This document shows positions 5,446-56,569 of a DNA stretch of 64,000 nt, one piece after another. The stretch's first letter is position 1; each line of letters starts with the position of its first letter. The notes below the pieces were generated by a model, which was not told where the DNA came from, did no database searches, and saw only the letters and a program-made list of their open reading frames with translations. Location of the stretch: the NCBI GenBank assembly GCA_030704615.1, contig CM060732.1:32550001-32614000 (forward strand), in the 5' to 3' direction. Both the position numbers and the translations under genes were made by a program. The DNA is from Takakia lepidozioides (taxonomy: Eukaryota > Plantae > Bryophyta).

Positions 5446-5920
5446 TCGGATGAAGTACTGAGCCAGTGGATGAAAATTGGCGCTCCTGGATGAGAATCAG
5501 TTGTAGTGGATGCAACTAGGCCAGCGGATGAAATCGCGTCAGCGGATGAACTATCGCGCTATCGGATTAAACATCACGGCGACGGATGAAACTGCATCAG
5601 CGGATGAACTATCGCGCTATCGGATGAAAAATTGATGCAACGGATGAAACTGCGTCAGTGGATGAACTATCGCGCTATCGGATGAAAAATCACAGCGATG
5701 GATGAAACTGTGTCAGCGGATGAACTATCGTGCCATCGGATGAAAAATCATGGCGATGGATGAAACTGCGCCAGTGGATGAAATCGTGCCAGCGGATGAA
5801 ATATCGTGCCAGTGGATGAAATATCGTTGCGGATAAAATATCAGACCTGCGGATGAGAAATCTTGGTTTTGGATGAGATTTGGTCAGTGACGGATGAAAA
5901 ATTGACTGACTGTGGATACT
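5446..5920 (+). repeat. GGATGAA-core minisatellite (~20-bp monomers) with a 58-bp higher-order unit
   Basis: CAG(C/T)GGATGAA recurs at 5540, 5598, 5656, 5714 and 5772 (period 58 = 20+20+18). Confidence 0.9.
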
Positions 5921-5972: not shown

Positions 5973-6735
5973 CGAGAAGTAGTGCGGTGATCTATCAAGG
6001 CTTGCTCACACAAAGCCTGAAACTCCCCCAAGAACTCTCTCCCCTGGTCCGTGAGTACCTCGGCTGGAGCACCAAAATGACTAAGCACTCGATCTAAGAA
6101 TGCATACGCAACCCCCTCATTTGCTTTGTCAGGCAATGCCACCAGTTCAATCCATTTGGAGAAGTGTTCCACCATCACTAGCACATACTTGTTGTGGCGA
6201 ATTGTCAATGGCAATGGGCCTACGAAGTCAAGACTCCAACGATAGCCCAAACCTATAATGGGTAAATGATGCAATTGTGGAGTAGGTGCGTTGAAAGAAG
6301 CCCGCACTCTATCACACACCATGCACCTTGCCACTAACTGTTGCACATCCGTATGCATGCCCCGCCACCAATACTGTCCTTGCAGCAAACTATGAGTGCG
6401 CCGAACCCCAAAATGTCTCAACTCCTCATGGCATGGCGTACCAATCGCGCTCGTTGTGTTGGATGAGGCACAATCCTCACTCGTCCATCCTCCCATACCC
6501 GGAGTAGGTGTGTCCCCTCCCACTTGAACCTCTTGGCTCGTTGTAGGACCCGATCCCTCTCCTTAGCAGTCACACTGGCTGTTGTCTCTCCGGTACGAAG
6601 GTATGTCAACACTGCTGTTAGTGAGGAGTTTGGTGGTACTAAGGATGTGCATGAAGATGGATCATCATGCACGCTATCTACATGACCAATCGCATGGGAT
6701 GGACCAGCTTGAGCTCCCATTGCTAGAATGCACAA
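5973..6735 (-). pseudogene. Gypsy integrase N-terminal half (HHCC zinc finger and first two catalytic Asp), cut by the inversion
   Basis: HEELRHFG...CMVC, WSLDFVGPLP, VLTDQGREF, ending at DHRTTSR. One frameshift near 6430. Confidence 0.92.
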
Positions 6736-6750
6736 AAAGACCGATGCATG

Positions 6751-7233
6751 TCATCCTGGCACCATCTCCTCATCCGTCTCACTATGCCACCGAGCTCCAA
6801 TATCATCATGCTCACTTGTGCATGGATTACGACTCAATCTATCTGCATCCCGATTAACAATACCGGCTCGATGCACCACCTGGAAGTCGTACTCTTGAAG
6901 CATAAGTGCCCACCGTGCAAGCTTCCCGGTAAGCTTGTCTGACTCCATCGACCACTTCAATGGTTGGTGATATGTGACAAGGGTGAAGAGATTGTCATAG
7001 AGGTAGCATCTGAAATGTGTCACTGCCCATACCCCAGCTAGACACTCCCCTTCATATGAACTATACTTCGCCTCGGCATCATTGTTCGAGCGGCTAGCAT
7101 ATGCCACTACGAACTCTCTTCCCTCATCATCTACCTGTGTGAGCACTGCTCCAATCCCCAGCATACTCCAATCCGTATGTAGCTGGAAATGCCGCTCCCG
7201 AATAGGCCGCCTCAGAATAGGTGCAGAAGTCAA
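6751..7233 (-). pseudogene. Gypsy RNase H domain
   Basis: FQLHTDWSMLGIGAVLTQ...VVAYASRS...YSSYEGECLA...HQPLKW...LARWALMLQEYDF. In frame with RT across a TGA at 7234-7236. Confidence 0.93.
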
Positions 7234-8200
7234 TCAAGCCTTGAGTTCCTCAAAGGCTTCCTCCTGCTCCTCCTCCCACTGCCACTCCTGACCTACCTTG
7301 GTTAACTTGGTAAAAGCCTTTGCAATGCTACTAAATCCCTTGACAAACCGTCGATAGTAGTTTGCTAATCCCATGAAAGCACGAACTCTGCTCACATCTA
7401 TGGGGCGTGGAATGCATGCAATGGCCTCCACCTTTGTCTGTTGAACACCCAATCCTCCAGGGTATATCATGTGGCCCAGATATTCAATCTGATTGTGGAA
7501 GAACTTGCACTTTCTGGGGTGCAGTTTCAACCCGTGCGCTCTCAAGCGCTCAAACACCACCTGAAGGTGTCTCTCATGCTCCTCAACCGTAGCACTAAAG
7601 ACGATGATGTCATCAATATAGCACCGGGCGAAGTCTAGCCCCGCGAGAATCCTATCCATGACCCTCTGAAACTCTGTAGGAGCATTCTTCAACCCAAACG
7701 GTAAGAACCGCCATTGGTACAAACAATCTTTCCCATGTTGGTCAATCCCCCAGAATGCCGTCTTTTGCTTGTCAGCCTCTTTGATTGGCAACTGGTGGTA
7801 ACTGGATCGCAAGTCCAATGTCCTAAACACCTTTGCATGCCCAATGGCATCAAAGATCTCTTCTGGAGTTGGCATGGCATATCTATCGGACTTAGTCTGA
7901 CGGTTCACAGGACGATAATCCCCACACATCATTCTTTCTGTCCAATTGCCATAGATATCCTTCTTAGCTGACATCACCGTTGCCGAGGCATACTCCCCGC
8001 CTGACAACTCCACCAATCCAGCTTTGAACAACTCCATATGACTGGATCAATGACCTCTTCATGTCATTATTTCGGTAGGGCCTTCGAAAGATTGGCGTGT
8101 CACTTGCCAAATCAATACGAATCTCCTAACCCTTCAAACTCCCCAAATCTTTCAATCCGAAGGCAAAGCAATTCCTATAAGCCCTTAGAAATCGCTGTAT
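7234..8200 (-). pseudogene. Gypsy reverse transcriptase domain
   Basis: CGDYRPVN, LDLRSSYHQ, PFGLKNAP, CYIDDIIVFS, YLGH. The N-terminal FAFGLKDLG...DTPIFRRPYR lies in the DNMT frame, joined by a frameshift near 8038. Confidence 0.95.
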
Positions 8201-8699
8201 CCTCCGTCTCTCTCCTCCGGTGACTGTAGGTCCAACATCTGGTTCCCAATTGTCCTCAGTGACTGCAACCTTGGGTACACCAGGCTTGGAGGTAGGAGAC
8301 GAATCCTTTGGTTGCTAGATAGCAACCTCTTGGGCCTTGTCCGCCCAATCTGACTGTGGCGTAGCCTCCACTTGCTCCGCCATAGCCACCTTGAGAACAT
8401 CCTCTGAGCAAGAAACATTCTCAACCTCTTCAAAAACCTTGGCCACCTTGGCCTCCAACTGATCCTCAGTCCATGGCTCTCCCCACTCCTCATACTGCTG
8501 CTTGAGAGATCCAATGACTCTCTCTTTGCGCATCTCATCACACATCTGCCATGGGTGTTTACAACCCACGATCCTGTACTCGCCCCCACTCACTGCCTCA
8601 ACCGTCTTGGTTGGCAGGGAGGATGCACTATCCAATGGGAGTGCAGAAGTAGCCATCAATGCTTGCAATCTCCGTTGTTTAGCCATGCACAAGCTAATT

Positions 8700-9532
8700 A
8701 TCTATGTCAAGCAATTTAGATCCATTGCTTGACCCAACACTTGGCGGCGTGATGCCTCTGACGGACCATTGTCTCGAAAAGCATGAGACGAGGGAAAGCT
8801 CATGAGCGTAGGCAAGGCCGCACGTGGCTACCCCACTCGATTGACCACTGCAAGAGGTGGACGGTCATCATGTCGCACCCTCTGTGGTTGTCTCCCTTGG
8901 TCCAAAATGCCCTCAACCGTGAGATTGGGTGGCCGATGAATGGAATCGTATGCTCTCTTGAGCAGCTCTGGTGGTGCAAGATTGGTCCACCACAATCGAG
9001 GTCGATGCGCGCGTGATTCCACCGCTGCTGCATCCAATAACACCGCCGATCCAATCCAAGACCGCACATGATGCACACTGGCCATTACCCTGGCCCGAGA
9101 ATCCCCCATAAGAGGAACATTCTCCAAGATATAGCCTAGAGGTTGCACTTGCCTCGTCTGCAAGTCCCGCAACACTCACAACATCTCCCAAAACAAATGC
9201 AATCGTGCATCATGCAAGCCATTCCCATGACCTGCGGGAGAGTGTCCTTGGTAAGGCCATCCAGCTATCACCAAGTTAATGGAACCATACCGGTCCAAAT
9301 CATCCGCCCCTAGCAAGGTAATGTCTACTGGCAAGGCCTTTTGATACCCTTGAATTGCTGAGAGATGCAACAACTCAGGATATCGGTGTGCGAGCAAGGC
9401 GATGTGGCGCATAGAAATATGCCGAGCTATCTTATCCTTCTCCACATATAAGTACTTGCGTACTTTAATCCATGCTTGCAACACTCCTACAAGCCTAGTG
9501 CTCATGCCTCCAAACAGCTCTAGCAAACAAAT
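8700..9532 (-). pseudogene. C5 cytosine-specific DNA methyltransferase domain (DNMT3/Dcm-like) embedded in the pol polyprotein
   Basis: Ordered motifs: I LLELFGGMS, II YVEKD, III DIT, IV LVIAGWPYQGHS (PCQ expected), V GLHDARLHLF, VI YILENV, VIII AHRPRLWWTN, X RRQVLGQAMD. One frame, with stops at 9176-9178, 8828-8830 and 8702-8704. Confidence 0.88.
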
Positions 9533-9929
9533 CCCTGAGTCAGATGGTTGCCAGGTAATGGGCACCGTGTCCAAAGGAGCTAACTCAGGAGGTCCAGGTG
9601 ATGTCACTGAACTCCCCTCACTCATCAATGGAAAGGCCTCCTGCCATGCTTGGTGCACACACTCGCCTGCTACTCGATGCAAATTCCCAACCGTACCCCA
9701 CAGTGGAATATGCACAGGCACATGAGGAAGCAAATCAGCCTTGTATGCCAATTGTTTGTCCTCATCAGGTGATGGCCTATCATCTGTATGGCTATTGCCC
9801 TCCAAGAGCTCACCACCCTAAGCCACCACCCCTGAAAATGCAGCCAATGTGGGCATCATGTTCCTATGATCCACCGCTACATTCCCAATAAACCACACTG
9901 GGAGTAGTGCACGTCGGCCATCTCCTGAC

Positions 9930-10330
9930 TGCCATTCCGGCCTATAGGATGTCGTTTCCTCCCAAAAGTCCAAAATAAAGCCCATGGGGTATAACACAGC
10001 CCCACCATTTACATCATAGGTCATCGAGTCCGTAACAATGGCTTTAGCTCTCATGACTGAGCCATCCGTAGGATGATCTGGCTGCAATCGAATGAAGAGC
10101 TCATGGCGTGTAATCCCTCGTGTCTTCTCTGAACCACCCAAAGATGTTTGAATTTGGAAAGGTCAAGGCTCCAAATCCGCCTCTGTAAGGCCCAAGCCTG
10201 CAATTGCTGCTCTTCCCAACATCAATGGATGTGCTCCCGAGTCCAACAAGACCCATAGTGGCCTATACCTCCTCCCGGCTGGGCCACCCAACTGAAACAC
10301 ACCATCCTGATTGTCCACCAGGACTACCCC
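9930..10330 (-). pseudogene. Retropepsin-type aspartic protease
   Basis: VLLDSGAHPLMLG active site and a YDV..GGAVL..MGFILDF C-terminal signature. In frame with the DNMT domain. Confidence 0.8.
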
Positions 10331-11194
10331 AGGAGTCACCATACTACGCTCAATGGCTGGTCTAGCTGATAACTCCTGCAACCTTGCAGTTGCCGCTTGC
10401 CATGGTGCAGCTGTGGCTGTCTTCACCCTTGAATCCAGGGCATTCATGCATTACACCTTATCCGCTATCCCCACAGATAGTGCCGATACATCACCACTCT
10501 CACAGAGTGCAGCTGCCAGTCTAAACACTGCAGCTAGCCGCATCCCCGGCATTGCAATTGTCGTGGCAGAAAACAATGGAGCTTGGCAAAACGTCGTAGC
10601 CACCCCCAACAATGTACTGGCTGCACCTTGCTTTGCAACACCACCCACTGGCATTTCCCGAGCCATACCAACTCTCCCCACTGGCACTCGTGGCTCTACC
10701 TCTGACACACTTGGGTGAGCGGGTACCATCGATGGCGTAGTTGGCACTGTCTCAGCCAATGTGAAAGACTATGGAAGCCTTGTCTGTCGACTTGCTTCCC
10801 CCCTTTGTGGATCAAAATCCACATCTGCTCCTCTTGGCTCATGAGCACGCATTGCTGCTCGAATGATAGCAGCTGTAGAGTCCACATGCAATGGTCCAGC
10901 AAGTGCGGCTCCACACATGAAGCCCATACCAATCTGGTCTTCCTTAGGCATAGGAGGTTGTGCAGGTGGGGCTTGAACCTCAGGCCTTGGAGTTGACGCC
11001 ACATTAGTGGCCATGGCAACAAGACGTTGCTCTAGCTGGGCAAGCCTATCCACCATGCCTTGGTCATGACCTTGACCTTGACCTTGTGCTCCTTGGTTTT
11101 GGTTACGACCTCCACCCGACCTCTACCTCCTCTACCTCTCTAGACTACATTGCCTCGTCCTCGGCCACCATTGTTCCCTTGGAACTGGCCTGGC

Positions 11195-12372
11195 CGTAGC
11201 TCAGGATGCAAGTCATAACAATGGGCCTCTTCATGCCCATACTTGCCACAATGCCCACACTATAGTTGTGTAGGTTGTGCATGTGCCGGCCCTTTGCCTC
11301 TCTCCGGGTAATCTCTCTTAACATAGGGTCCTCCACAATCCCAACATGTCACACCTGACTGTTGTTGGCCTGAGAATGAAGGAAGTGACCTCTACAATTG
11401 AGATCCTCTCTGTCCTTCCCTGGGCTTCGCCTGAGCCCCCTTGTTGCCTTGAGCACGTTGGGGTAGTGGTTGTTGTTGGCTAGGAGCCCCACTTCGTTGT
11501 GTCTCCTTACCAAACCCCACCATGACCACTCGCTCCTCCACCACATTGAGCTCTATCCGCTCTGCCAGCAAAAACACGTTTGCTAAGGTGGGTTGGTCCA
11601 CTTGTAGGAGAGTTGCATCCCGCACCCTTCTCCTCAGCTCCTTGTCCAATATCCCATACCAGAATTGGACTACTTGAGCTTCCGTAACCCATTGGATTAC
11701 ATTTATCAATCGCCTCATGCGCGCGTAAGCCTCCCTCAAACTCTTAGTAGGCTTGCGCTGGAACTCTTGCAAGCTCCACAATTTCTCCGTCCTTATCCCC
11801 TGGTAGTTTCTCCCCAACTCCTCGAAGAACTCCACAACTGGGTTAAAGGCAGGCACGGGAGCTGGTGCTGCAGCAAGAGCTTGAGTGGATTTCCCAGCTC
11901 CATCTTTACTTGTCCCACTACTAGTGCTTGCAGTTGGGGATGTTGGTGTAGCTACTGGTATCGCCGCTGCCATTGTGCCTCTAGTGATGGAGACATAGTC
12001 AGGTGACCAATATTGCCGCCACTCCTCAATCTCCACCTCATTTCCCCGCCTAAACTCATGGTAGTCATCCATAGGCGGCCCCTCAAGGTGCTGAAACAGC
12101 CCCTTCCACGCCATAAAAGGCGTAAACAGTTGTGGATTGCGCATCTGCTGCAAATCACACCAACTATCAAACTCCTGTATGAAATCATCAAGCTCGATGG
12201 TGCCCACAGCTCCCGAGTACCGACGTGGCCCCTTGGTAGCTCCATACATTTCCTCCATCGTATCCCACAACAATGGCACGGAAATGGCTTGCACCCTCGG
12301 CGAGAATCCTCCTAACTCTGAGTCTGAACCTTCCTCAGAAGACACTGAAGCTGAAGGTGGCCTAAACCGCAC
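11195..12372 (-). pseudogene. Gag with two CCHC zinc knuckles
   Basis: 326-aa ORF with LQEFQRKPTKSLREAYARMRRL...FWYGILDKELR (retrotransposon gag-like). Knuckles are CWDCGGPYVKRDY (degenerate) and CGHCGKYGHEEAHC. Confidence 0.85.
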
Positions 12373-12494
12373 ACCTCATCTTGTATACCCACTAGTATCC
12401 GGTAGATGGTGTTGTCACCTGACTGGAGAAATATGAATTGGGGACAGTGATGGGGAACTTTTCAGGATTGAGTAACTGTGTAGAGTGAAGGCCT

Positions 12495-13194
12495 CAGAAG
12501 GGACACCTAAGAGATTGGGACCTTCAACTGCCTTGGCTAGCTATGGGCTATAGATTCAGCAAACAAGCTTCACTTGCCTCCTTCTCACCTTACTTTCTTC
12601 TCTTCGGCCGAGAGCCGGATTTGCCTGCATCTATTCGCAGGGAGGTTGCAATAGTTCTCAACCTTGATGATCCGGATGTGTGGACACAAGCATGTGCCCA
12701 ACGGGCAGAGTTTTTCAAGAGAATCATGCCTATGGCTTTTGAGAACCTTGCTATTGCCCAACACCGAGACACATTGAGGTACGTCACTATACGTGGAGGG
12801 GGATATCGGCCAAATGTTCGGCGTTTCCACCCTGGGGACTATGTGTATCTGCAGCAGACAGCACCTACGACCTTGGAGGTCACCGCAGGACGTGTGATTC
12901 TAAGGGTCAGGGAGATGTTGCCTTCAAGAGTGTTGATTCTGGAGGGTCGAGATGGCATGGTATGGAAGGACCATGTGCGCAATTGTGCGCCATGTCACCT
13001 TCTACATATGGATGGGAGGATAGATCCTAACCTTGCAGTGGTACCTGCAGGGTTGCGTTGCATGCTATGACGCCACAACCATGTTGGTGTGTGACAAATG
13101 CTCAAGGGGGTGGCACATGGGATGCTTGACACCGCCACTTGAGGAGGTTCCTATCGGGGAATGGTTGTGTCCACGATGCCTTGGACAGAGGTAG
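12495..13194 (+). pseudogene. Integrase C-terminal half followed by a PHD finger
   Basis: QKGHLRDWDLQLPWLAMGYRFS...FSPYFLLFGREP...FHPGDYVYL...RCML, a small deletion/frameshift, then TMLVCDKCSRGWHMGCLTPPLEEVPIGEWLCPRC; stop at 13192-13194. Confidence 0.9.
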
Positions 13195-14094: not shown

Positions 14095-14650
14095 ATGGCA
14101 ACTGTGATGAAAAAAGAACTGTGGCATTTGCTTACTGTAGATGATTTGGATATGAGCGTTACAGATGCAGCATTTCAGAGTCATGTTTTGTGTCGTTACG
14201 GCAACCGGTACAAAACCAACAGTGTCTTTGATTCCCCAAGTGCATTTTCATATTTGCATTGTCATGTTACAGACATCTATAGATTTACTACGGTGACCAT
14301 CACAGTCTCTGATTCTCTTGTGCAGACTCACTCTTACAAGCTCACACAAGGAGCTTTCATACGTTTGGAGAACTTTTCAATCCATAATAAGCAAAAGTTC
14401 GAAAGAGGACTTGGATATCGTGGTCAAGATCAGGTGAGCCACCAAAGTGGAGATCATTGTTTCATTCGTTTCATTTTATCTTCACTTTCTCGCTAGTGAT
14501 ACTGTTATGACTATCGTCAAAAAAAGTGCTGAAAAAATTGTTATGGCTATTATTGTGATGGTGATCATCGCCGTACGTGGAGAAGTCGACAACAAATTTG
14601 AGCTTACCATTTGTGGATGGAAACACACAGTCCGATATCTAGATAGTACG
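14095..14650 (+). pseudogene. RPA1-like OB-fold protein relic (type carried by plant Helitrons)
   Basis: YLHCHVTD...VTITVSDSLVQTHSYKLTQGAFIRLENFSI...IVVKI..ATKVEII fits an OB-fold pattern. Frameshift near 14405. No Rep/helicase was seen. Confidence 0.5.
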
Positions 14651-15899: not shown

Positions 15900-16130
15900 G
15901 CAGAGAGCACATAATAATTTGTTATCGACTTCTCCACATACGGCGATGATTACCACTACAATAGTCGCCATACCAAATCTTTTTAAATAGTATTACCAGC
16001 GAGAAAGTGAAGAGAAAATGAAACGAATGGAGTGATGATTTCCACTTTGGTGGCTGAGCTAATCTTGACCACGACATCCAAGTCCCATCTTTTGAACTTT
16101 TGCTTATTACGGAGTGAAAGGTTCTCCAAT
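15900..16130 (-). pseudogene. Second, inverted partial copy of the RPA-like sequence
   Basis: The reverse complement aligns with 14365-14650 (e.g. AATAAGCAAAAGTTC...GTGGTCAAGAT...GCCACCAAAGTGGA). Confidence 0.75.
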
Positions 16131-28369: not shown

Positions 28370-31356
28370 TTACTTAATCTGCAATCCCACCCTCAGATCC
28401 TGTGGCATGCTTCCAGGAAGTCGGCTTGTTATTGTGTTTATTGATGAGGTTCTGATTAACGGTTTAACAACTGCCGACATTGCTCCTAGGGATACTCTGA
28501 CCACTGGGCCCACAAGAAAAGGGAGCCCTAACCCCGGATTTGCATTGAGCTTGCCACCTTGCACAATTCATCTTAACGAGTGAGACCATTTGTCACTAGT
28601 ACTTGATGTCGCTGCCAAAAGATGTTGCCTGACCAGCCTGCTCCAAGGGCAGGGTAGGTGGGTAAGCGAACGGGGAACCCACTTAGTAAGCAACGCAGTA
28701 ATCTGCGATTGAGGATCAAGCACCCCCCAGCCCCCCATTCTTCTTACTCTAACAAAGCTGCTCCCAGCTGACCAAAGCTCTCTTATTCGCTAAGGATGGA
28801 GTTGCGCCCCAAATAAAATTCATCATCAATGATTTAACTTTCTTTAATAATCAGTGCTCCAGGCGACCACACTGAGGCTAGGAACCATAGGGAGGCCAGA
28901 AGGACTTGGTTAACAATCAAAGCTCTTCCAATGACAGAAAGATGTAGGGAACTCCAATAAGAGAGCTTTTTTTTCAACTTGCAGAGGACAGCATCAAACC
29001 TTATCTCATCATTCAAATCAGTGCCAACCAATTGACCTAGCAGCTCATGCGATTCTCCATCCAAGAGCCATCGCAAGCCTAGCTCAATTCCCCACGGAGA
29101 AGCTGTAGTGGGGTCTGACAGTTGACTCAACAAGCCGACCGACTTTCCCCAATTAATTTTAAGACCAGAGGCTGCACAGAAGGATTTCAACAAACTGAGA
29201 GCAGCATTGACATTGGAAAGAGAGGAATTGTTGATAAACAATGAGGTATCATCGGCATAAAGAGAAGATTTTATGGAGGAAGCAGGGGAGATATCAAGAG
29301 AATTAGGAATAACCAAGCCCAACGAATCTTGTCTCTTATCCATCAAGTGGCCTAGACCATCCGCAGCTATCAGAAATAGAAAGGGAGCCAGTGGGCATCC
29401 CTGTCTAACAGATTTGGATAGGGGAAAGGCTTTAGAGATCACACCATTAATCAAGACTCTGCTAGAGGCTGAAGAAAGTAGAATACGAATCCACTTCAGG
29501 AAGTTCCCATTAATACCAGCCGCTTCCAAAGCACCCCACAAGTAGCACCAGTTGATGTTATCGAAAGTTTTTTCAAAATTTAACATGAGGAGGGCCAACG
29601 GTTGGTTATCAGATCGAGCAAGATGCATCACCTCATTGGTCAAGAGTATGTTATCCAGAATCATTCTCTTTTTCAAGAAACCTGACTGTTCTGGTCTAAT
29701 CAACTTGGACAACAAAAGTTGAAGACGCCTCGCTAGAGCCTTGGCTATGATTTTGTAGGTAGAGTTTAACAAGGTGATCGGCCTGTAGTTAGACAACAAA
29801 TCACGATCCCCTTTTTTGAACACTAGGGTGATGACTCCCTGTGATAACTGCGAGGACATTATCCCTTTGTCCAAAATATCATTGGCCATTTTCAAGTTCA
29901 GTCATTCCCAACCACCCCCCATAGGGCAATGAAAAATTCAACTGGCAAACCATCCAAACCAGGAGTCTTCATCACACTTAGGGCTTCAAGGGGCAGACAA
30001 ACCAATCCGCTCAGCTGAAGAAAGAATTTTGGGAAAGGAATGAAGAACCTCATATCTTGATTCTAAGTGACGAGAGACCTCAACACTTGAAGAGAAGAGC
30101 TTAGCAAAATGCATAGCGGCTGCAGCAGCAATTTCCTTTGGTTTGGAGATGGAACAACCATTGGAATCTGTAATGGAATGGAGATGAGTAGCCTCCCTTC
30201 TTTGCTTTGCCTTCTGGAAAAAATAACCAGTCATTTTTTCACCCTTCAATGACCAGTTCACCCCGGCCCTTATGCGTTGGAATTTTTTTTTTTTAGCATC
30301 AACCTCAGCCAGGTTCCTTTTGGCAGAAAGATAGGATTCCATTGTCACCGCACCATGACTCCCTTCTTCAATCCTCCTTTGACAGTGAGCCAAGCATTTA
30401 GTGAGAGCTTTATGTCGTTGAGCTCTTTCAAGAGCAATAGAGCGAGAAAGGGATTGCGCCAACCTCCTAGTGGCCTGAAGCTTATGAAGGAAGGATATAG
30501 ATGGGGACTGGAATCCAGAGCCAGCAGCGGTCCATTCGCTTTTCAACTGCTGCAAACATTCCACCCGCTTCAAAATGCCAGGGTTTAGTTTGAAATAGCC
30601 TTGGCCTCTAGAATGTAAGCAAGGAGGTCTAAATTCAGCAGATACCACTGCATGGTCAAAGTCTGCAAGGATGGGGGTCTGAGCCATACCTCTAGCCCAA
30701 GACAGAGGGGAATGAGAACAGTAAACCCGGTCCAAACGAGCCATACACAAATTTGGTGGAGCTCTCAGATTGGACCATGTGAATCTCAATCCTTGAGAGG
30801 ATTATGAGTAAATGTCCACCAAACCCACTGAAAAGCAAAGCATGTCCCATGCCACTTGTTCCACATCGGATAATGATTGAGAGGCATGCACCAACCTATC
30901 ATTGAAATTATCAACCATATTGAAATCACCAGCAAGTGTCCAATTCAAGATATCAGGGAAACTTGTGATCTTATCTCTGATTATGTCCCAAAGAGCAGCC
31001 CGATCTAGGGATAGGTTGGGTGCGTAGACGTTGATAAAGGCTGCCTGGCCAAAAGAGGAGGAGGGTTCCGTGAAGGTCTGCACACTTTTTATTGAAGTAG
31101 CCAACGATGGGGATGCCAAAATCGCCATCCCCCCACGGGAGGAGGAGATAGTGGGGTTCCAGCAGGGCACCTGTGCTGGCCAGAAGCTATTTCCAATAGA
31201 TCTTATTTTGTTGTCATCTAACTTAGTCTCTTGCAGAAATATGATCGCTGAGGAGGAAAGAAAGGAAGAAGCCCAAAGTTTGACACGTCTTCTTTTAGGC
31301 ATGGTGGTATCTGAACCTATACCATGAATGTTCCAAGAGTGAAGTGACCAAGTCAT
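28370..31356 (-). mobile_element. L1/Tx1-type LINE ORF2 (APE endonuclease + RT), disrupted and lacking its 3' end
   Basis: SWNIHGI, IFLQETK, INVYAPN, LAGDFN, ARLDRVY; then KTPGLDG, NYRPITLLN, VRQGCPLAP, LYADD. In-frame stops and frameshifts are present. Sequence up to ~32180 may be degraded ORF1. Confidence 0.93.
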
Positions 31357-32189
31357 GTAGGAAATAGCATACAGCCCACAGAGAAGGCTCCACGATTTGA
31401 TGGCTAAAGGAGCATAGCAACAAATAAATGAAGATGGAGGAAGGGAAGCTGGAGGTTTGGACTAGACAACCAATTACATAAACTGAACTTGCCATCCTCC
31501 CAGCAGCAGGTACAAGTCTCAGACTTATGTAGCATCAACTGCCATTTAGCATAAAAGGCCTTACCAATGAAAGAGAGATCACATCCTCTGCCATATCCCA
31601 AAGACTGCCAGTCCATGCCACTAGTGATCCTTATACACACCAAGTGATCCTCAACAAGGAGATTTAGATCAACAGAGGAGAAGAGAGGGAGAAGGGCTTG
31701 AGAGCAGGAGTAAGGGAGCTCACCGGAGGAGGGAAGTGATAGCAAGGTCCATCAACGTGAAAAACTTGTCTTTGATGGGGGATCATCCTCGGAGGGCATG
31801 TTCCGTTGTGCATAGTGGAATTCTTCCACGATCTTCATACCCGCATCGAACACTGCAGACACAAACTTCCTGTTTCCAATTTTCCCAAACTCCACTGGAA
31901 TCCGATCCCCAGGCAGCCAAGTCAGCAAAGAGGAGGAGCTTTCAAGCTCAAGTCTGAGAGACGTATAGTAGGCAGTAGCTGAATACTATAATCTCCAGAA
32001 GAACATTGATTTTGGAAAGCACCAAAGAAGATAGGAGTGTCAGTGTTAAGAATGAGATGAGGAAGAAAATGCAGAAAGATGCTATGGATCTTAGAGAGTA
32101 TCACATCCATTTCTTTCCCCTGAGAGAGAGAATGGACATCTTCCGGGAAGATCCAGGAGCCCACAAAGGTATCCTTGCCAGTTACCAAA

Positions 32190-35690: not shown

Positions 35691-35901
35691 TTGTCAACTG
35701 AAGGACCTTTGGAAACCCCCTCCGTCCCATCGGCTTGGAAGAGGCCCCTCGGGTGCGTGACCCCATAATCCACATTGGACTTTATTCAACTGTCAAACTA
35801 AGTTGTTGCCGAACCCAAAGGTTGGGAAATTGTATCAGATGGCGTGAAGAGATTTTGTCCATCATTAAGTTCTTGGGCTTCTTGTATTCCAAATTTTTCT
35901 T
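35691..35901 (+). repeat. Dispersed repeat, inverted copy at 48007-48216
   Basis: TTGTCAACTGAAGGACCTTTGGAAACCCCCTCCGTCCCATCGGCTTGGAA...AAATTTTTCTT is the reverse complement of 48007-48216 with scattered mismatches. Confidence 0.9.
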
Positions 35902-37044
35902 ATGGCTCTTGGCAGAAGTGGTTGTCTGTGCAAACTCGCGGCTGCAAAGTCTTGACTTGATACTGAACTGGCTACTGGAACATCTGCTAGCACTGGCCAT
36001 AGTATGCTTGTGAAACATGAGATGAGTGGTGGTCTGATGAGCTGTATATCGACATTTAACGAAGCATGCTATTTAGTGTACATGTACTGTTAGCCCATCA
36101 CATGTTACTACAGAAAAATCCCCATGTCTTGATGTGATCATGCAGGTGCTGGAGGGAAACCAGCTCGAAGAGAGGTCACTGTTACTTGGTGGAACAAAGT
36201 TGATAATCAAAGTCTAGTACAGGTATTCTCATCACTGCAGTCATGCACTTTGTTGGTCTTTATCTCGTGAGACTTCTCTCCCTGGTATAGTTGGAACCTC
36301 TGTTCTTTAGTCTTCTGTGATTTTCAGCTTAACGTCTTCTGATTTGATAAGGGGCAGGTGTACTCCTCTGTCAAGAAACAGAAGATGGTTGTGAGGTAGT
36401 GATATTCAGCAACGACTTTACGATCAATACAATACTGCAAAGCTTGTTTCTCGAGTGCCTCACTGCCAGTGGAACTTCCAGGTTCATGTACACCTAAAAA
36501 TTAAGTCCCACATCTATCTTCATAGATTCCTCAGAATTGGGTTCTCTAGCTTCAGGCAAGAATACATGTCCTCTTTTAGGTGCAGCCTGAACATAGGTTG
36601 GTTTTGCTTATTAGGCAGCGAAGCTCAACATACCAAGTGGGTTGTGGAAGATATATGTGTGGCTTAAATATGTTCTCACACCATCCAATGTGCTGGTGTG
36701 CAGGTGCAACCCTTCATAGGGCAGCCACATCAGATACATATACACCTGGCGGCACTTGTACATCCCCTAGTGGGTGGGTGTACTCACCTTGGGATCTCAT
36801 TCTATGAGAGATGGTCATGACCTGTCCAGTGATTGCAATCTTGGGTTGTGGATTCGTCGTATAAGTTTTTAAATGTGGCATCTTAATGGTCCATTCTGAA
36901 ACCATTAGGGGTGGACATTGAGCCGAGTGTTTGTACATCCGGTACGGTTAATATATGGTGGATGCATTTAAGGTGATAGTACAAGGGGTACATTACACTA
37001 AACAAACTTTGCGCTAACAAATGAGGATGGTTCATTGTAAACAG

Positions 37045-40000
37045 GTGACCCTCTGTATGTTGTCGGGGGCAGATGGCGAGCAGATTTTACTACTGGGGTC
37101 AGCAGCCTTCAGAAGGAGCTCGATCCTGCCGAGGTTGGGCAAGTTTCTGGCACGGGTGGGGATGTTAGGACATTATGTAAGGCAGGGCAACTAAAAGAGG
37201 CGATTCAGATTTTAAACCAACAAGGCATTTGGTCAGACTCCAATACTTGTGTCTTTATCTTGCAGCAGTGCATCAACATGAAAGCCCTAGCAGAGGGAAA
37301 GCAGGTGCATGCCCACATTGTCCAAAGTGACGTCAAGCCTAACATCATTGTACTTAACGCACTTATTAACATGTATGCCAAGTGTGGGAGTGTAGTGGAT
37401 GCACGCCAAGTGTTCAACAAAATGCCTGCACGAGATGTGTTTACGTGGACTTCAATGATTGGTGGGTATGCGAAGCATGGGTATGGTAGGGAGGCTTTGG
37501 AAATCTATGAGCAAATGAGATGGGAATCCATCGCTCCTAACAAAGTCACTTTCATTTGCATTCTCAAGGCATGTGCCAACTTAGGGACCCTCAAAAAGGG
37601 CAAGAAGGTCCATGGTGACCTCATTCAAGCTGGAATACTGCCAGATATCATTCTGGAAACCGTCCTTGTGGACATGTATGCAAAATGCAGAAGCATGAAG
37701 AATGCCCGTGAAGTGTTTGATAACATGGCTAAACGAGATGTAGTCTCATGGAATTGTATGATCACAGGATATTCTCAGCATGGATGCAGTAGGAAGGCTT
37801 TTGACATCTATGAGCAAATGATGCGGGAAGGGGTAACACCCACCAAGGTCACGTTCATTTCTGTTCTCAATGCAGGTGCCGCCCTGGGGGGCCTCGAAAA
37901 GGTGAAAGAGGTCCATGCCAACATCATCAAAGCTGGAGTTGTGCCAGATACCATTCTGGACACTGCCCTTGTTTATGTGTATTCTGAATGCAGGAGCATG
38001 AAGGATGCGCGTCAAGTTTTTGAGAGTATGACTCAACGAAATGTGGTCTCATGGAGTGCCATGATTGCAGGTTATGCCCGTCATGGGTGTGGAGGTGAAG
38101 CTTTAAAGATGTATGAGGAAATGCAACAGGAAGGGGTGACACCCAACAGGGTGACATTCATTTCCGTTCTCAAGGCGTGTGCCAGCCTAGAAACCCTGGA
38201 AAATGGCAAAGAAGTCCATGCTGACATTGTCAATGCTGGAATCAAACCCGATGTCATGCTGGAGACTGCCCTTGCTGACATGTATGCCAAATGTGGGAGT
38301 ATAAAGGATGCATGTCAAGTGTTCAACAATATGGCTCAACGAAATGTGATCTCATGGAGTGCAATGATTGCAGGATATGCTCAGCATGGGTTCGGCAGGG
38401 AGGCTTTGGAGATGTATGAGCAAATGATATGGGAAGGAGTGACACCTGACAAGGTCACTTTCATTTCCGTTCTCAAGACGTGTGCCAGCCTAGAAGCCCT
38501 GGGAAAGGGCAAAGAGGTCCATGCTGACATTGTCAAAGCTGGAATTGTGCCAGATAGCATTCTGGAAACTGCCCTTGCTAACATGTATGCCAGATGTGGG
38601 AGTGTGAAGGATGCACGTCAGGTGTTCGACAATATGTCTATACGAGATACAGTCTCATGGAACATGATGATCACAGGGTATGCTCAGCATGGGTGTGCTA
38701 GGGAGGCTGTTGGGCTGTATGCGCAAATGCTACGGGAAGGGGTGACTCCCAACAAGGTAACATTCATTTGCGTTCTCCATGCCTGTGCCAGCCTGGCAGA
38801 CCTAGAGAAGGGCCAAGTGGTCCATGCTGACATCATCAGAGCTGGATTCATGCCAGATAACACTGTGGACACTGCCCTTATTGATATGTATGCCAAGTGT
38901 GGGAGCATGAAGGATGCGCATCAAGTGTTCGAAAAAATGACCCAACAAGATGTGATCACATGGACTGCGATGATATCAGGATATGTTCAGCATGGTTGTG
39001 GTAGGGAGGCTTTCAAGATGTATGAGCGAATGATATGTGAAGGGGTGACGCCCAACGAGGTCACATTCATTTGTGTGCTCAATGCGTGTGCAAGTTTAGT
39101 GGCCTTGGAAAAGGGCCGACAGGTCCATGCTGACATCATCAAAGCTGGAATTTCGTCATATGTAAATTTGGAGAATACCCTCGTCAACATGTATGCCAAA
39201 TGTGGGAGCATGAAGGATGCGCGTCAAGTTTTCAACAGTATGTCCGAACGAGATGTCGTCTCATGGAGTGCAATGATCGCAGGATATGGCGAGCATGGGT
39301 GTGATAGAGAGGCTTTGGAGATGTATGAGCAAATGATAGAGGAAGGGGTGAGGCCTGATCAGGTCGCATTCATTTGTGTTCTCAATGTGTGCGTCCGCCT
39401 TGCAGCCCTGGAAAAGGGTAAAGAGGTCCATGCTGACATCCTCAAAACTGATCTTGCAACCTATATTAATTTGGAGAATACCCTTGTCAACATGTATGCA
39501 AAATGTGGGAGCATGAAGGATGCACGTCAATTATTTGATACTATGTCTAGAAAAGATGTGGTGTCATGGAGTGTAGTGATTGCTGGATATGGTCAGAATG
39601 GGTGTGCTAGGGAGGCCCTCCAACTATTTGAACAAATGCATCAAGAAGGCTCAAAGCCAAATGGTGTCACCTATATATCTCTTCTTTCTGCATGTAGCCA
39701 TGTGGGCCTAGTAGATGAAGGCTGTCACTATTTCGATTCCATGAGTCGAGATCAAAGCCTCAATCGGACAGTGGAGCATTTTGGCTGCATGGTGGACCTT
39801 CTTGGCCGTGCAGGGCGGCTGGATGAGGCAGAAGACTTGATTAGCAAAATGCCGATTGAACCAGCTGCTTCAGTGTGGGGGGCCTTGCTTGGTGCCTGCA
39901 GAATTCATGGCAATGTGGAGCTAGCAGAACGTGCGGCAAAATTTCTTCTCAGATGGGATCCACAGGATGCTGCAACTTACGTGTTGCTATCAAACATCTA

Positions 40001-40481
40001 TGCTGCAGCTGGCAGGTGGGAGGATACAGTGAAGGTGAGAAAAATGATGGAGGACAGAGGTGTCAGAAAAGAGGCAGGGCGTAGCTGCATTGAAGTGGAC
40101 AACCAGGTGCATACATTTGTTGTAGAAGACAACTCACACCCACAAATTAAGGAAATCCATTCAGAGCTGAGGAGATTGTATGGACAGATGAAGGAGGCCG
40201 GATATGTGCCTGACACACGCTTTGTATTGCATGACATAGAGGAGGAGCGAAAGGAATTTTCTCTTTGCTACCACAGCGAGAAGCTAGCCATTGGTTTTGG
40301 GCTGATCAGCATGCCCCCTGGGATGCCAATTCGTGTCATCAAGAACCTTCGGGTATGCGGTGACTGCCACACTGCCAGCAAGTTCATCTCGAGAATTGTT
40401 GGGCGAGCAGTTATAGTACGTGATGTCAACCGCTTTCACCACTTCCAAGATGGGGCTTGTTCTTGTGGTGATTACTGGTGA
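37045..40481 (+). CDS. PLS-class pentatricopeptide repeat protein with E1/E2/DYW deaminase domain (organellar C-to-U RNA editing factor); main exon
   Basis: Uninterrupted frame with eight 101-aa L-S-P triplets plus L2/S2, HSEKLA, CGDCH and terminal CSCGDYW. The frame is open back to a CAG acceptor at 37042-37044 (in-frame TAA at 37038), so the start codon probably lies in an upstream exon. Confidence 0.96.
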
Positions 40482-47432: not shown

Positions 47433-48006
47433 TGGTGTTCGTGAGAAATTTGTTTCTGCGTGAGATTGTAATCGAGGTTCGTTGAAGTTTGCCCTGTTCA
47501 CAGTTTCGATCAAGATGTTGGGGGTATTGAGCTTTGTGGTTTGCACCGTTGTTGGTTTTGGGACCCGTTTGCTCGAGCTCAGTCTACATCTATTACATCA
47601 TCCACCGATGGCTGTTTTTTTTTTTTTTTTTTTTCCTGGGTGTCCCATCATTCTGGCGGATCTGCAATGAATTGCCTGAAAATGAGCAGCTGTACTGCAG
47701 GTCCAAAGCTGCCTCCATGCGGCTGCAAGTTCTGCTTGGAGGGGTCTGGACTGCAACCCTTCTGCCTCCATAATGGATTGTTACCCTGAGACCACATAAC
47801 GTTCTCTCCTCCACCCAATACTTATAGGAATGTAAGACCAGTCGATTGATGCGTTAGTGTGGATTGATGAGTGAAATTGGTATTCTCTTAGTGCAATGGA
47901 TAGGCTGAATTCTTATCAACCACCTTCAGTTGCGAGGCATGAGGGAAATAATTACATGAGGTACTTGAAAATAAAAGTGAGGCACTGACTCCTGTTAGTT
48001 ACTGCA

Positions 48007-48216
48007 AGAAAAATTTGGAATACAAGAAGCCCAATAACTTAATGATGGACAAAATCTCTTCAGGTCATTTGATACAATTTCCCAACCTTTGGGTTCTGCA
48101 ACAACTTAGTTTGATAGTTGAATAAAGTCCAATGTGGATTATGGGGTCACGCACCCGACGGGCCTGTTCCAAGCCGATGGGACGGAGGGGGTTTCCAAAG
48201 GTCCTTCAGTTGACAA
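48007..48216 (-). repeat. Dispersed repeat, inverted copy of 35691-35901
   Basis: Reverse-complement match to 35691-35901. Confidence 0.9.
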
Positions 48217-49235
48217 GCACCCCTCTTGAAAAACAATAGTTTGTTCTAGCTACCGACAAATCTTAAGTATGAATGTCACAAACATTATAGCAATGAACAA
48301 GAATTATGTACATAGTTCATGTAGACTAAGAAGATGAGTTGTATTTATATATCTTTGATATGTATTTAGGAAGAACTTGAAAATAGTTCAAAGTATATGG
48401 TTTTAGACCCCAATCTAGAGTTAACTTATTTTAACACTTAATTTTGAATACTTTTAAATATAGTGATTTTGTTTTAAAAAATAATATAATATAATATTCA
48501 GGGCTACAATCCCTTTTTATTTATTTAAAAATAAATAAATATACAATTGTCTCTTTGTTTTTGTAATTGGGTTATGGTGCATACAAGTTTCTAGACAAGT
48601 ACGTATTAAACCACCATTCTACTTGATGTCAGTATAGTTTATATGAAATTTTATTTGTATCATTGACAAATGGATTCCTAGAGAGATATGGCACACAACA
48701 ACATGCATCTCCATAGTTCCTCAATCATCCTTGAGCTCCACATATATCAGATTGAGTTGTATTGTTACTCCACCTGACATCAACTATTGGCCCGCGAATT
48801 TTCGATAGCCACGTCGTAATGACGTTGGCAGCCTTGTCCCCCCAACCTGCCCCCCTCCTCCCTAGGCCCCACACGCTCCTGGGGCACGTGTAGGCCCGCG
48901 CCACCCTCCACGAGCCAAAATGGCAAAAGTTTGGGGCCAAATTGGCAAAACTCCCAAGCCATGGCGCCAACGGGCCCGCCAACACCTCCCCCGCACCCCA
49001 ACCTACCCGCCCAAACCTACACCCCAGGCTTGGGCCAGCTAGCCTCCCTGCGCAGTGTGTGAGTAGCTCGACGAGCTACTCACTATTTTCTCTATGTCAT
49101 TTTGGCTAGTGGCTATGTCATTTTCTTAGTCTCTTGGCTCTAAGTCACTTTGGCGTGTATAGTTGGCTTTGTGTTGGTTGTTAGGGCTTGGAGAGTGCAA
49201 GATTAAGAAGAGTATTTGGCTTGCATGTTTTCTTT

Positions 49236-52200
49236 ATGGCTAGATTGGAGGTACAAAACCCCGACAAATTAGTCTTCAGGGCTGAGGACTTAAAATGGAC
49301 TCCAAATACACGATGGGGAGGAGGGAATATGGCAACTTGTATGATTGCATATATTCCTATGAATCGAGTGGATGACTTCAAAGAAGGAGAGAATCAATAT
49401 CCGCAAGCACCTACGAAATTCTATTTGATCAAGACACGAAAGCAAAAGCCGCCACAAAATGCAACAATTCAAAGTTACATTACACACAAATGGTGTGTTT
49501 TGTTCTTCCATGTTACTTCAAATTATCTCTATATGTTTAGTATGCAATCTTATTTACATTACATTGCATGTAATATCATCTACTACTTTGTTTTGTCACC
49601 TAGTTGTGGACAAAAAATGGTGCTTTCCATAGAAGAAATGTATGTTGTAAGGAAAACTAGGGTTTCCCAAAACAATCTTACGGAAAGAACTTCTTCAGAT
49701 ATAAAATCCATTAGAACATTACATAACCCTTTGATATAAATGGTAGATTTTACTAAATACATATTTGTCAAATTAAAATATAATTTTGTATAATACATAT
49801 TGATGTGATTGAAGTGTAATATCGTATTATAGGTACCATTGTGGATGGGGTCGAGAGGATGATCGTCCCAATCCAAATGAGCCGATTGCTTCACCACCGC
49901 CACCATCTATGACACTTCAAGTGTCAACAACGTCAGGCCGTAAAATCAGGAAAAAAAAGACGAGACAAGGTGGGACGCGGAGAAACGACATGTCGAGGTT
50001 GTTTATGCATGTTTTCAATGAAACGATTATGTTTATATCCTGATGTTGCACAATTGGCTTATTATCATACGCAACACACGGACGCTATGGGTAAACCTTG
50101 TCATGGAAATTCGGATCCAGAATCCATTGATCGTCGTTCTCAATTTGCTCCCTTCATATTGGAAGAATTGAAGGAATGGATAGGGAAAAAACTTGATTGT
50201 GGAACCACTCCTCGTGCAATTTTGGATGAACACAAGCGGCATTGGCAAGAGAAAAACGAGGCAGAAGGTGCATCTACGAGAGACGATTTTCTAAAAATGT
50301 ATGACATTCTGAACATTGCCAAACGAAAGGCATTTGAATCTTATAAACGTCATGGAGATCCAGCTCGAAGCGTGCAAATGTGGGTGTTGGAACATCCCGA
50401 AAAGGTTTTTTTTCTATCAACAACATGACGAATCACCAGGTTTACCTTTCACTCTCGGTATACAAACTCTATATCAGAAAAAAAGAATGTTGGAGTTGGG
50501 GCATGGAGGACTCGTTGCATGTGATGCTACATTTGGGACAAATGACCAAAAATTCCAGTTATTTACCCTCATGGTTTTCGACAAACATTTTAATGGTGTG
50601 CCTGTTGCGTGGATAATAACGAGTCGAGGTGAAGCGGTGGATCTTGTGTATTGGATGACCGCATTACAAGGCCATATGACGGATGCAAATGCTCATTGGT
50701 TGCCGTCATCATTCATCGTTGATGATGCAGATGCAGAGAACAACGCCATAAGGTATTTTCATGTACTACATATTACACTTCTTTGTATTATGCTATTTCT
50801 TTAAAAATGCTAGGATGGTTCTTCATATCAGTATGTCAGTTGTAGCATTTGCATTGACCCTTGGAGACAATTTACAACACATCGCAGTTTCTTAGATGTG
50901 GACTAGACCTCACAGAAAGATTGTTCTTATAGTGGACAACATGTGGGCTAAACCTCACAGAAGGTTGTTCCTGTCATGATGGATCTGGACTAAACCTCAC
51001 CGAAGGTTGTGCCTGTAGTGGATAACATGTGGACTTACCCTTACAGAAGGTTGTTCCTGTCATGGGTTAGTTTCTAACATCTGGACTAAACCTCGCAGAA
51101 GGTTGTTACAGTCATGGGTCAATCATGTGGTCTGAACCTAACGGAAGGTTGTTCCTGTCATGAGTCAATTTGTAGCATATGGACTGAAACCTCACGGAAG
51201 GTTGTGCCTGTCATTGGTCAATTTTGTGAAATGTGGGCCAAACCGCACGGAAGGTTGTTCATGTCATTAGTAAGGTATATGGAGTTAACCACATGAAAGG
51301 TTGTGCATGTCATGGGTCATGTGGGCTAAACCTTGCACAAGGTATACATCTAATCTAAACTTATGTACCAGTTTGTGTTACAATTTTATTTTGCAGAAGT
51401 GTGTGGGGTCCTGGTATGCCTATTTTTCTTTGTCTATGGCATGTTCGAAAGTCTTGGAGGAAAAATGCAATTACCAAGATTACAGACGCGGAAACTCGAA
51501 GTGTGATATTGGAGGGCATTGGGAATATTATGTATATGGCATCAAAGCCCAATGAGTCATCAAGAGACATTGAGGTTAGAGCCAAGGAGGCTATCAACAA
51601 ATTATTTTCCAAATTTCCGTTAGAGAAGGAGTTTCGGAATTATTTTCGCAAAGAATGGTATCTCAAAACAGCAATGTGGGTGACAAGTGCGAGAAAAGTT
51701 CCACATGCAGGACAAGAGACTAATTCTGCTATTGAGGCTTACCATGGGTTCTTAAAGTCTCGACTGTCAGAATCTAAAAAGACTTTGGCCGGTCGAAGGG
51801 TAGATTGGCTTGTCTATGAGCTAGTTGGTGATGTGATGAGACATTATTCATATATGGAGAACATGAAAGCCCATGGATTTGTGAACAATTCTCGAGCATA
51901 ACGTTTCATTGAAAGTGTTATTGTAAGAGCTAAAAGCATACCGGATTCCAGCGTTATATATCCAACAGAAGATGGTGGATGTTTCCAAGTCGAAGTTCGC
52001 AGTATTCCACCAAGTTCTATGTTGTGCATAATGCATTCAGCGAATGGGCATGTTGCACTTGCGATTGGGCAAAGAGGGGTAACATCTGCAAACATCAGAT
52101 AAAAATTGTGCAATTGACAGGTAACACATCAAACCGTCGTATTCTGCAAGCATGTGGGACGGAGTACGGATCGACACGTGGTGGACTTCAGGCATTGTTT

Positions 52201-55570: not shown

Positions 55571-56569
55571 TCACTACACATTCCACAAAGCACAATTTTC
55601 TTCAATGAAATTGGTTTCATTTGGTTTCATTTGGGTTTCACTATAGTTTAGGAAATGCATAAAAACATCATGAACACAACCTTCCCGAAGAAAATCCTTA
55701 TAAGTGGATGAAATGAGAGTGCTTAAGAAAAAAAAAAAAAGTAAGAAAGAGATGATCTTAAACTACATTAACTACATGAAACTACATATAGGGTTCAAAA
55801 AATGAACCAAAACCACATGGATATAAGCATTTTGAATATTTAGTTTTTGGAATGGATTATGAAGTCCATAGAAGCTTAGACCTAAGTTTTGTTAATGCGC
55901 AATGAATTCTACTATTCAGCAGCCACATGAAGAACAAACTAATGAAGTGAAGTGAAATGACATAAGACATACATGAAAATGTTGGTAAGTTGATAATTTT
56001 TGTAGTGATTTTGCTCCAGCTTCTGTCCTCCTTAGCTTTGCCTTCATGTAGCACTAACACACAGCTCCCGTCTCCTCGAATCGCACCTTCGGTTTATGAA
56101 ATCTAAACCCTAATCCTCTCTTCTCTCTCACCCTAAACCCTCTCTTCTTCTCTTTGAGCATGAAAGCAGCAACCTCCCGGTGAGTAGCTCGTCGAGCTAC
56201 TCACTGGGTAGGGGAGTAGGGTGGGGGCGGCTAGGGCTGGGACTGGCACGGTCCCCGAGCCTGGGCGGATAGGTTTGGGGGGGGGGGGGTGTTGGCGGGC
56301 CCGTTGGTGCCATGGCTTGGGAGTTTTGCCAATTTGGCCCCAAACTTTTGCCATTTTGGCTTGTGGAGGGTGGCGCGGGCCCACACGTGCCCCAGGAGCA
56401 TGTGGGGCCTCGGGAGGGGGGCAGGTGGGGGGACAAGGCTGCTAGCGTCATTACGACGTGGCTATCGAAAATTCGCAGGCCAACTATTGCATCTTGTATA
56501 CCGAGTCTTTATCACAACATTACAAAGGTTTGTACTTATTATAGACCATAAGCAACTTATGTAGCTTAA

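Follow-up and report, generated by a model that had tools for sequence, protein, structure and literature searches.

The closest known system to the element described here is KnitGypsy-Dnmt3 of Klebsormidium nitens, which the available text of its description reports from Klebsormidium only (de Mendoza et al. 2018, PMC5890265). In KnitGypsy-Dnmt3, the domains of a Gypsy element are joined by an intronless, DNMT3-like cytosine DNA methyltransferase (DNMT) domain under purifying selection, and the peer-review file of that paper places the DNMT in one open reading frame (ORF) with reverse transcriptase (RT) and RNase H (RH). The locus examined here lies in a 64,000-nucleotide stretch of the Takakia lepidozioides genome (contig CM060732.1, positions 32,550,001 to 32,614,000; hereafter the window) and holds a dead, rearranged Ty3/Gypsy element of a land-plant family that has the Gypsy domains and the intronless, selected DNMT3-like domain in common with KnitGypsy-Dnmt3. 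In this family, however, an in-frame stop codon separates DNMT from RT at each of 34 junctions, a contrast that takes KnitGypsy-Dnmt3 as described in the peer-review file. The comparisons indicate a bryophyte-distributed DNMT3-Gypsy family that is probably related to KnitGypsy-Dnmt3 and works like it, the defining difference being a conserved, probably leaky stop by which the enzyme is grouped with Gag.

Other systems resemble the family in part. SymbioDIRS-Dnmt3 likewise encodes a cytosine methyltransferase within a retrotransposon, and its domains methylate CG de novo in yeast; unlike the Gypsy family, SymbioDIRS relies on a tyrosine recombinase, according to the text available (PMC5890265). 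The DNMTs of EpiLTR elements differ in being sister to DNMT4 and in carrying a DAM domain and a chromodomain, as far as the preprint text consulted goes (bioRxiv 10.64898/2026.05.21.726589). The host enzymes PpDNMT3a/b and MpDNMT3b share the DNMT3-type fold with unpermuted motif order. Host DNMT3 proteins carry a C-terminal DUF3444 (PMC6453930, in part), whereas no DUF3444 match was found in the element proteins scanned. As for the stop itself, tobacco mosaic virus (TMV)-type readthrough likewise involves an in-frame amber codon between an upstream product and the polymerase, and CAA CCA comes next in the window. Unlike the TMV-type case, the stop of the window family lies in a retrotransposon, after Gag, protease (PR) and DNMT, is followed by CAA CCC in the commonest subfamily and is a predicted readthrough site. 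Plant Gypsy elements have been linked to readthrough before, since the accessible part of PMC2754532 already mentions candidate cases in rice gypsy elements.

No land-plant description of a DNMT-carrying Gypsy element was found in the literature covered, which largely excludes subscription journals, nor was any mention of the conserved stop or of five Marchantia gene identifiers belonging to the family; the supplementary trees of later papers might include bryophyte elements. Later papers of the de Mendoza group, in their available text, write of 'streptophytes' and cite the 2018 paper (PMC12344493; bioRxiv 10.64898/2026.05.21.726589). Such an element is likewise absent from the accessible text of PMC6317226, PMC6453930, PMC9985172 and bioRxiv 10.1101/2021.02.12.428880, the first of which, in that text, mentions no methyltransferase or PHD domain for the REXdb Phygy/Selgy non-chromovirus clades.

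A conserved stop between methyltransferase and reverse transcriptase

Relatives of the element were gathered as proteins (P numbers) and as loci from a metagenome scan that returned 44 loci (L numbers). All 33 of the fetched loci that span the junction, as well as the window, have an in-frame stop in the DNMT-RT linker, 17-23 codons upstream of the WEP motif at the start of the RT region. Every stop within 36 codons of the WEP anchor was listed without bias, while the junction pattern was written after the motif had been seen. The stop is TAG in 26 of the 34 junctions and TAA in 8, and the six bases 3ʹ of it are CAACCC (27), CAACCA (2), CAACTA (2), CAACTC (1), TAACCC (1) or TAGCCA (1). CAR-YY therefore follows the stop in 32/34, the remaining two having T for C at +1, and two loci without an RT anchor (L020 and L038) add two cases of TAG CAA CCN. 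Across five subfamilies with differing linker lengths and saturated synonymous sites, the stop lies 99, 113, 136, 139 and 147 codons past motif X; three of these subfamilies have an exact CAR YYA context, a fourth departs from it by T for C at +1, and CAA CCC is the context of the Sphagnum-type subfamily.

Stops attributable to decay behave differently. CAR-YY follows only 5 of 316 decay stops and CAR-YYA none of them, and any given codon of the domain is a stop in at most 9 of 23 loci. Moreover, sister contigs from sequencing runs of the host show no alternative letter at 8307-8345 (8% threshold), with 30 differences listed elsewhere in 8105-8345. Many protein relatives terminate at matching places, 90-160 residues past motif X, and intact relatives are called as two proteins, a Gag-PR-DNMT of 1228-1437 amino acids and an RT-RH-integrase (IN)-PHD of 1033-1043 amino acids, the latter including one cluster with 226 members. 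On this comparative evidence the stop at 8317-8315 is a conserved family feature and not decay, and the predicted layout in the window's clade is Gag-PR-DNMT3, stop, RT-RH-IN-PHD. The earlier note on this DNA had put the enzyme inside the Pol polyprotein; since the conserved stop splits Gag-PR-DNMT from RT-RH-IN-PHD, DNMT would instead belong to the first, presumably abundant, product. The window copy carries this layout as follows.

11188..12258, minus strand: Gag and zinc-knuckle region, with ATG at 12258; matched by tblastn to residues 1-357 of Marchantia P0122 at 55%
9977..10360, minus strand: aspartic protease, with LLDSGA at 10249-10232
8693..9532, minus strand: DNMT3-like C5 cytosine methyltransferase, with three stops, Tyr at the catalytic position (9253-9251) and the motif IX region deleted near 8760
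8309..8317, minus strand: conserved in-frame TAG followed by CAA CCA, the predicted end of ORF1; exact UAG CAR YYA consensus (type I readthrough)
6754..8314, minus strand: short linker, RT (RVT_1, E 9e-33) and RNase H (RT_RNaseH, E 4e-33), the predicted start of ORF2
5973..6615, minus strand: N-terminal zinc finger of the integrase with most of its core, broken off at 5973 (Integrase_H2C2 and rve matches)
12465..13185, plus strand: remainder of the integrase and C-terminal PHD finger (PHD, E 7e-11)

The methyltransferase, its family and the window copy

The reading of one minus-strand frame that runs without introns from protease through the methyltransferase motifs to the start of RT was borne out, LLDSGA and DTPIFRRPYR (8101-8072) being joined by 716 codons. 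The DNMT landmarks on this strand are motif I (9532-9506), the motif IV region (9280-9245), ENV (9130-9116), RAHRPR (9013-8996) and GQAMD of motif X (8737-8720). Read with X at its stops, 9616-8693 matches the Pfam hidden Markov model of DNA methylases (PF00145) at 29.9 bits against a cut-off of 22, and relatives P0122, P0141, P0151 and P0173 reach 35.6-44.6 bits. Among 36 matches in the PDB at E up to 1, human DNMT3A is the top sequence match for the window domain (E 5e-6). The intact relative P0002 scores 48 bits with DNMT3A, 24 with DRM2 and 19 with HhaI in phmmer. Four phage enzymes were picked out of 227 matching records; on the element domain they reach 45-60 bits, about as high as human DNMT3A. 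The fold was checked on P0002 in place of the window translation: its AlphaFold model (pLDDT 74, pTM 0.81) retrieves DNMT3A first in Foldseek (E 3e-17, TM 0.80 by target length). By sequence and modelled fold, the domain is a genuine DNMT3-like one whose activity is predicted. The family alignment keeps PC, ENV, RxR and motifs IX and X intact. Of the 38 sequences that cover the catalytic Cys, which the earlier note had proposed to look for in other copies, 37 retain it, the sole exception being the window copy.

The protein search with the DNMT domain yielded 121 relatives among 2375 candidates (120 listed), and named relatives among the matches listed come from Calypogeia fissa, Marchantia, Riccia and three Sphagnum species. 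A search for longer proteins added 58 relatives among 7990 candidates, many of them Gag-PR-DNMT of 1150-1440 amino acids, and a profile search returned 562 clusters at E up to 1e-30. No match listed bears the name of Physcomitrium or of a fern, lycophyte or seed plant, most matches being nameless and transposon genes often being masked; in IMG/VR, none of 26 pattern matches was confirmed as a relative. In Marchantia polymorpha, open Gag-PR-DNMT genes with catalytic PC are annotated as hypothetical (e.g., Mp4g09160 and Mp8g17980). The proposal of a streptophyte lineage that persisted in non-seed plants agrees with this distribution over liverworts and peat mosses and with kinship to the Klebsormidium elements, whose RTs (two RT-bearing proteins) share about 50% identity with the window RT and group with it in one broad RT clade.

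DNMT adjoins RT in all 33 junction-spanning loci. Between subfamilies, the ratio of nonsynonymous to synonymous substitution (dN/dS), where computable, is 0.13-0.25 for DNMT, 0.04-0.11 for RT and 0.20-0.37 for PR, values that are rough because dS is saturated (synonymous difference, pS, of 0.63-0.86 for DNMT). Comparison within the Sphagnum-type subfamily gives a median DNMT dN/dS of 0.60, as expected of decaying copies. The fixed position and the purifying selection between subfamilies uphold the view that DNMT is part of the element and not a later nested insertion; as judged from these alignments, it is an integral, selected component of the Gypsy family. The chance that DNMT is instead a captured host fragment, with every stop due to decay, is negligible: the dead window copy and the Sphagnum-type median would suit such a one-off capture, which is already refuted by the shared DNMT position in all spanning loci, the low dN/dS between subfamilies and the relatives across green algae and bryophytes.

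Assignment to Ty3/Gypsy follows from the verified order Gag-PR-RT-RH-IN with a DDE integrase. The window Gag matches the Retrotrans_gag profile weakly (E 0.002, below the cut-off), and the protease finds support in relatives P0141 and P0151, which match Asp_protease_2, above the cut-off in P0151 only. Among 14 long loci examined, split repeats in the order A-coding-B-A-B are complete in two, L023 (1768-10971) and L033 (1676-10805), and match the 'DIRS-like' repeats of KnitGypsy as given in the Fig 4c legend of PMC5890265. Both loci have 4-bp target duplications, read by eye; L033 ends in TG...CA and L023 starts with TA. Only B...B was found in L010 and L037 and only A...A in L005, and the remaining long loci, many of them cut short or decayed, have no split repeats. 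In L033 and L005, the inner B/A joint GACA-GC-TGTC resembles an end-to-end circle junction despite the DDE integrase, which suggests an unusual reverse-transcription route.

The window copy itself is dead. Nine in-frame stops lie between 11098 and 8030, frameshifts occur near 11100 (splitting Gag from the rest of ORF1), 8040 and 6430, the catalytic PC dipeptide is PY, and a gap of about 35 residues near 8760 takes in motif IX. The description of the frame as broken only by point stops is not borne out, given the PY site and the deletion, and one of the stops, at 8317-8315, is the family feature. Integrase and PHD finger are unbroken in L003, L005, L009, L015, L023 and other related loci; because they are contiguous there and split across strands in the window, the 5973-12460 block appears inverted. 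Just past the break at 5973 lies a 58-nt tandem repeat (5522-5811). Terminal repeats of the window copy were looked for and none was found. Sister copies were surveyed in a sequencing run that covers 55% of the window's words, in which 10,068 contigs map to 7700-10500 with all 30 bins covered, contig depth not being equivalent to copy number. At the catalytic codon the sister contigs do not match the window, and across the deletion two of those listed have extra letters, so the Tyr and the loss of motif IX are private to the window copy.

Probable leaky translation and its alternatives

UAG CAR YYA is a type I readthrough signal (PMC2754532, PMC11166343, PMC3542737), which allows about 10% readthrough in TMV and, in Arabidopsis transgenics, 6-10% (PMC2754532), and the CAR YYA context is effective on UAA as well (PMC3542737), according to the parts of these papers that were available. 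Analysis of the junctions makes it quite likely that the conserved stop is read through, giving mostly Gag-PR-DNMT3 and, if TMV is a guide, full-length polyprotein in roughly a tenth or less. Most ribosomes would stop after Gag-PR-DNMT3 and a minority would continue into RT-RH-IN-PHD. The methyltransferase would thereby enter the particle with every Gag molecule, at capsid stoichiometry, and be cut free by the element's protease. Once freed, it would methylate the complementary DNA (cDNA) during synthesis, such that new copies would land already methylated, and the PHD finger of the integrase would steer insertion by chromatin state. As a whole, the reading in which a likely leaky stop sets DNMT at capsid levels and the enzyme likely methylates the element's own new cDNA is fairly probable; that element cDNA is the substrate of the DNMT stands, taken by itself, at about an even chance.

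Several observations weigh against this reading. Of the 34 junctions, 29 belong to one Sphagnum-type subfamily and are not independent, and the CAA CCC of this commonest subfamily (27) is off consensus at the sixth base; only 4 of the 34 sequences, from 3 of the 5 subfamilies, have the exact CAR YYA. A downstream RNA stem as an aid to readthrough is unsupported: its base lies 14-17 nt past the stop in all five sequences folded, with z-scores of -0.5 to -1.3, and for eight sequences between 17 and 115 of 300 synonymous shuffles equal or better the natural stem. KnitGypsy-Dnmt3 produced no DNA methylation in yeast, a result that its authors called inconclusive in the text available (PMC5890265). 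Furthermore, CG depletion gives the element no signature of self-methylation: CG observed/expected is 0.49 in the element, 0.42 in a PPR gene, 0.33 in a LINE (both described below) and 0.50 in the whole window, and neither CG nor CHG depletion sets the element apart from its neighbours there.

The stop could also be a true end of ORF1, with RT-RH-IN-PHD translated by reinitiation at an AUG of its own, or expressed through an internal promoter, and DNMT still at the level of Gag. An AUG does follow the stop by 3 codons in the Sphagnum-type subfamily and by 5 in L029, and the ORF2 proteins P0363, P0365 and P0366 begin with Met 16-20 residues ahead of the WE(P) motif. There is also a precedent in Candida Tca2, whose similar gag-stop-pol junction is reported, in the available text, to contain a promoter and to support no readthrough (PMC2194720). 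However, the window and L019-type copies have no in-frame AUG before RT, their first Met being at +85 and +48, respectively; separate initiation leaves the conserved CAR-YY unexplained, and a Pol made without fusion to Gag would, from general knowledge, need another route into the particle. Separate initiation is therefore unlikely. Splicing is rather more doubtful still. In that case the TAG would be a 3ʹ splice acceptor or intronic, and spliced RNA would join ORF1, with or without DNMT, to RT. A T-rich stretch does precede the AG in the Sphagnum-type context, and six named gene models (P0095, P0126, P0130, P0132, P0137 and P0150) fuse DNMT to RT without part of the linker, which may reflect predicted or real splicing and counts against the leaky stop. 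However, conservation lies 3ʹ of the AG (CAA CC), the 5ʹ side varying between subfamilies, and the gene models skip different stretches, P0132 rejoining 7 residues before WEP and not at the stop.

Readthrough may also be real while the abundant DNMT acts elsewhere, in trans on chromosomal copies as a form of copy-number self-control, or by binding DNA without methylating cDNA. Capsid-level amounts would exceed the needs of one cDNA per particle, the element has no extra CG loss, and a slowing of transposition was raised as an option by de Mendoza et al. in the text available (PMC5890265). Fusion to Gag and PR is, however, the usual way into the particle as a matter of general knowledge, and retention of the catalytic Cys in 37/38 sequences argues against a non-catalytic role; action of this kind seems very unlikely. 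The leaky stop with packaged, cDNA-directed DNMT hence remains the favoured reading of the junction.

Relationships, neighbouring features and significance

Relationships come from fast, unbootstrapped IQ-TREE runs on rows picked by hand (81 for DNMT, 73 for RT), with long-branch warnings on the RT tree; the DNMT tree leaves out spliced-looking gene models, host DNMT3 and the Klebsormidium DNMT sequences. In the DNMT tree, the window groups with Marchantia, Calypogeia and Sphagnum-type sequences in a clade of 13 rows (SH-aLRT 100), and none of the rows chosen for the enclosing 33-row clade (97) is fused to RT. Unlike the window's clade, Closterium gene models and other relatives have DNMT fused to RT in one ORF, and these form a separate clade of the DNMT tree. 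The RT tree repeats the groups of the DNMT tree. Because the fused proteins P0170 and P0330 fall within its wider 21-row clade, the stop is not universal there. A Coleochaete transcript stands next to the land-plant elements, with Klebsormidium further out. This transcript, P0362 of Coleochaete scutata, has an RT-RH-IN-PHD ORF that is 70% identical to the window RT; the lineage is transcribed in this alga, which is closely related to land plants.

A second layout, RT-RH-DNMT-IN-PHD, is found in P0154, P0157, P0169, P0176 and many of P0190-P0320, and is absent from the literature consulted, as far as its available text goes. Its 25 rows, Chromochloris and Haematococcus among them, fall to one side of a DNMT-tree branch (99), and the layout again occupies one side of a branch in the RT tree. 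An intact RT-RH-IN-PHD filed under an uncultured cyanobacterium (P0491, in the cluster of P0366) is likely eukaryotic DNA in a metagenome bin.

Elsewhere in the window, an intact PPR gene of the PLS class, free of introns and equipped with E, E+ and DYW domains, occupies 37041-40481 on the plus strand and marks the host as a land plant; its 1146-amino-acid frame contains eight regular 303-nt repeats, and its product is likely an organellar RNA-editing factor. Inverted repeats flank this gene (35691-35901 and 48006-48216, 211 nt at 96%), and a second pair lies at 14365-14598 and 15916-16129 (about 230 nt at 78%); both pairs are possibly the ends of DNA transposons. Putative fragments of a MULE/SWIM-type transposase, assigned by resemblance, lie at 49185-51901 on the plus strand and are bracketed by inverted repeats at 48787-48997 and 56277-56483. 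A decayed LINE with endonuclease and RT frames lies at 28834-31461 on the minus strand, and the 64-kb window contains no tRNA genes.

Why a transposon should carry an enzyme that silences transposons has been an open question since 2018, in part because the known hosts, dinoflagellates and Klebsormidium, are hard to work with and because the Klebsormidium enzyme was silent in yeast. It is about an even call that the family represents a bryophyte-wide Gypsy lineage with a programmed leaky stop, in which DNMT3 is a cargo at capsid stoichiometry, with many molecules in each particle, that methylates the element's own cDNA before integration, and that, given the second layout in chlorophyte algae, DNMT3-carrying Gypsy-PHD elements form an ancient green-plant clade. 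The conserved stop predicts a definite ratio, with much DNMT and little RT, and this ratio would suggest that the enzyme has a bulk task rather than being a passenger in Pol. With copies in Marchantia polymorpha, a genetically tractable plant for which methylomes exist, the question becomes testable. The family also bears on counts of DNMTs and on the interpretation of methylation mutants in bryophytes.

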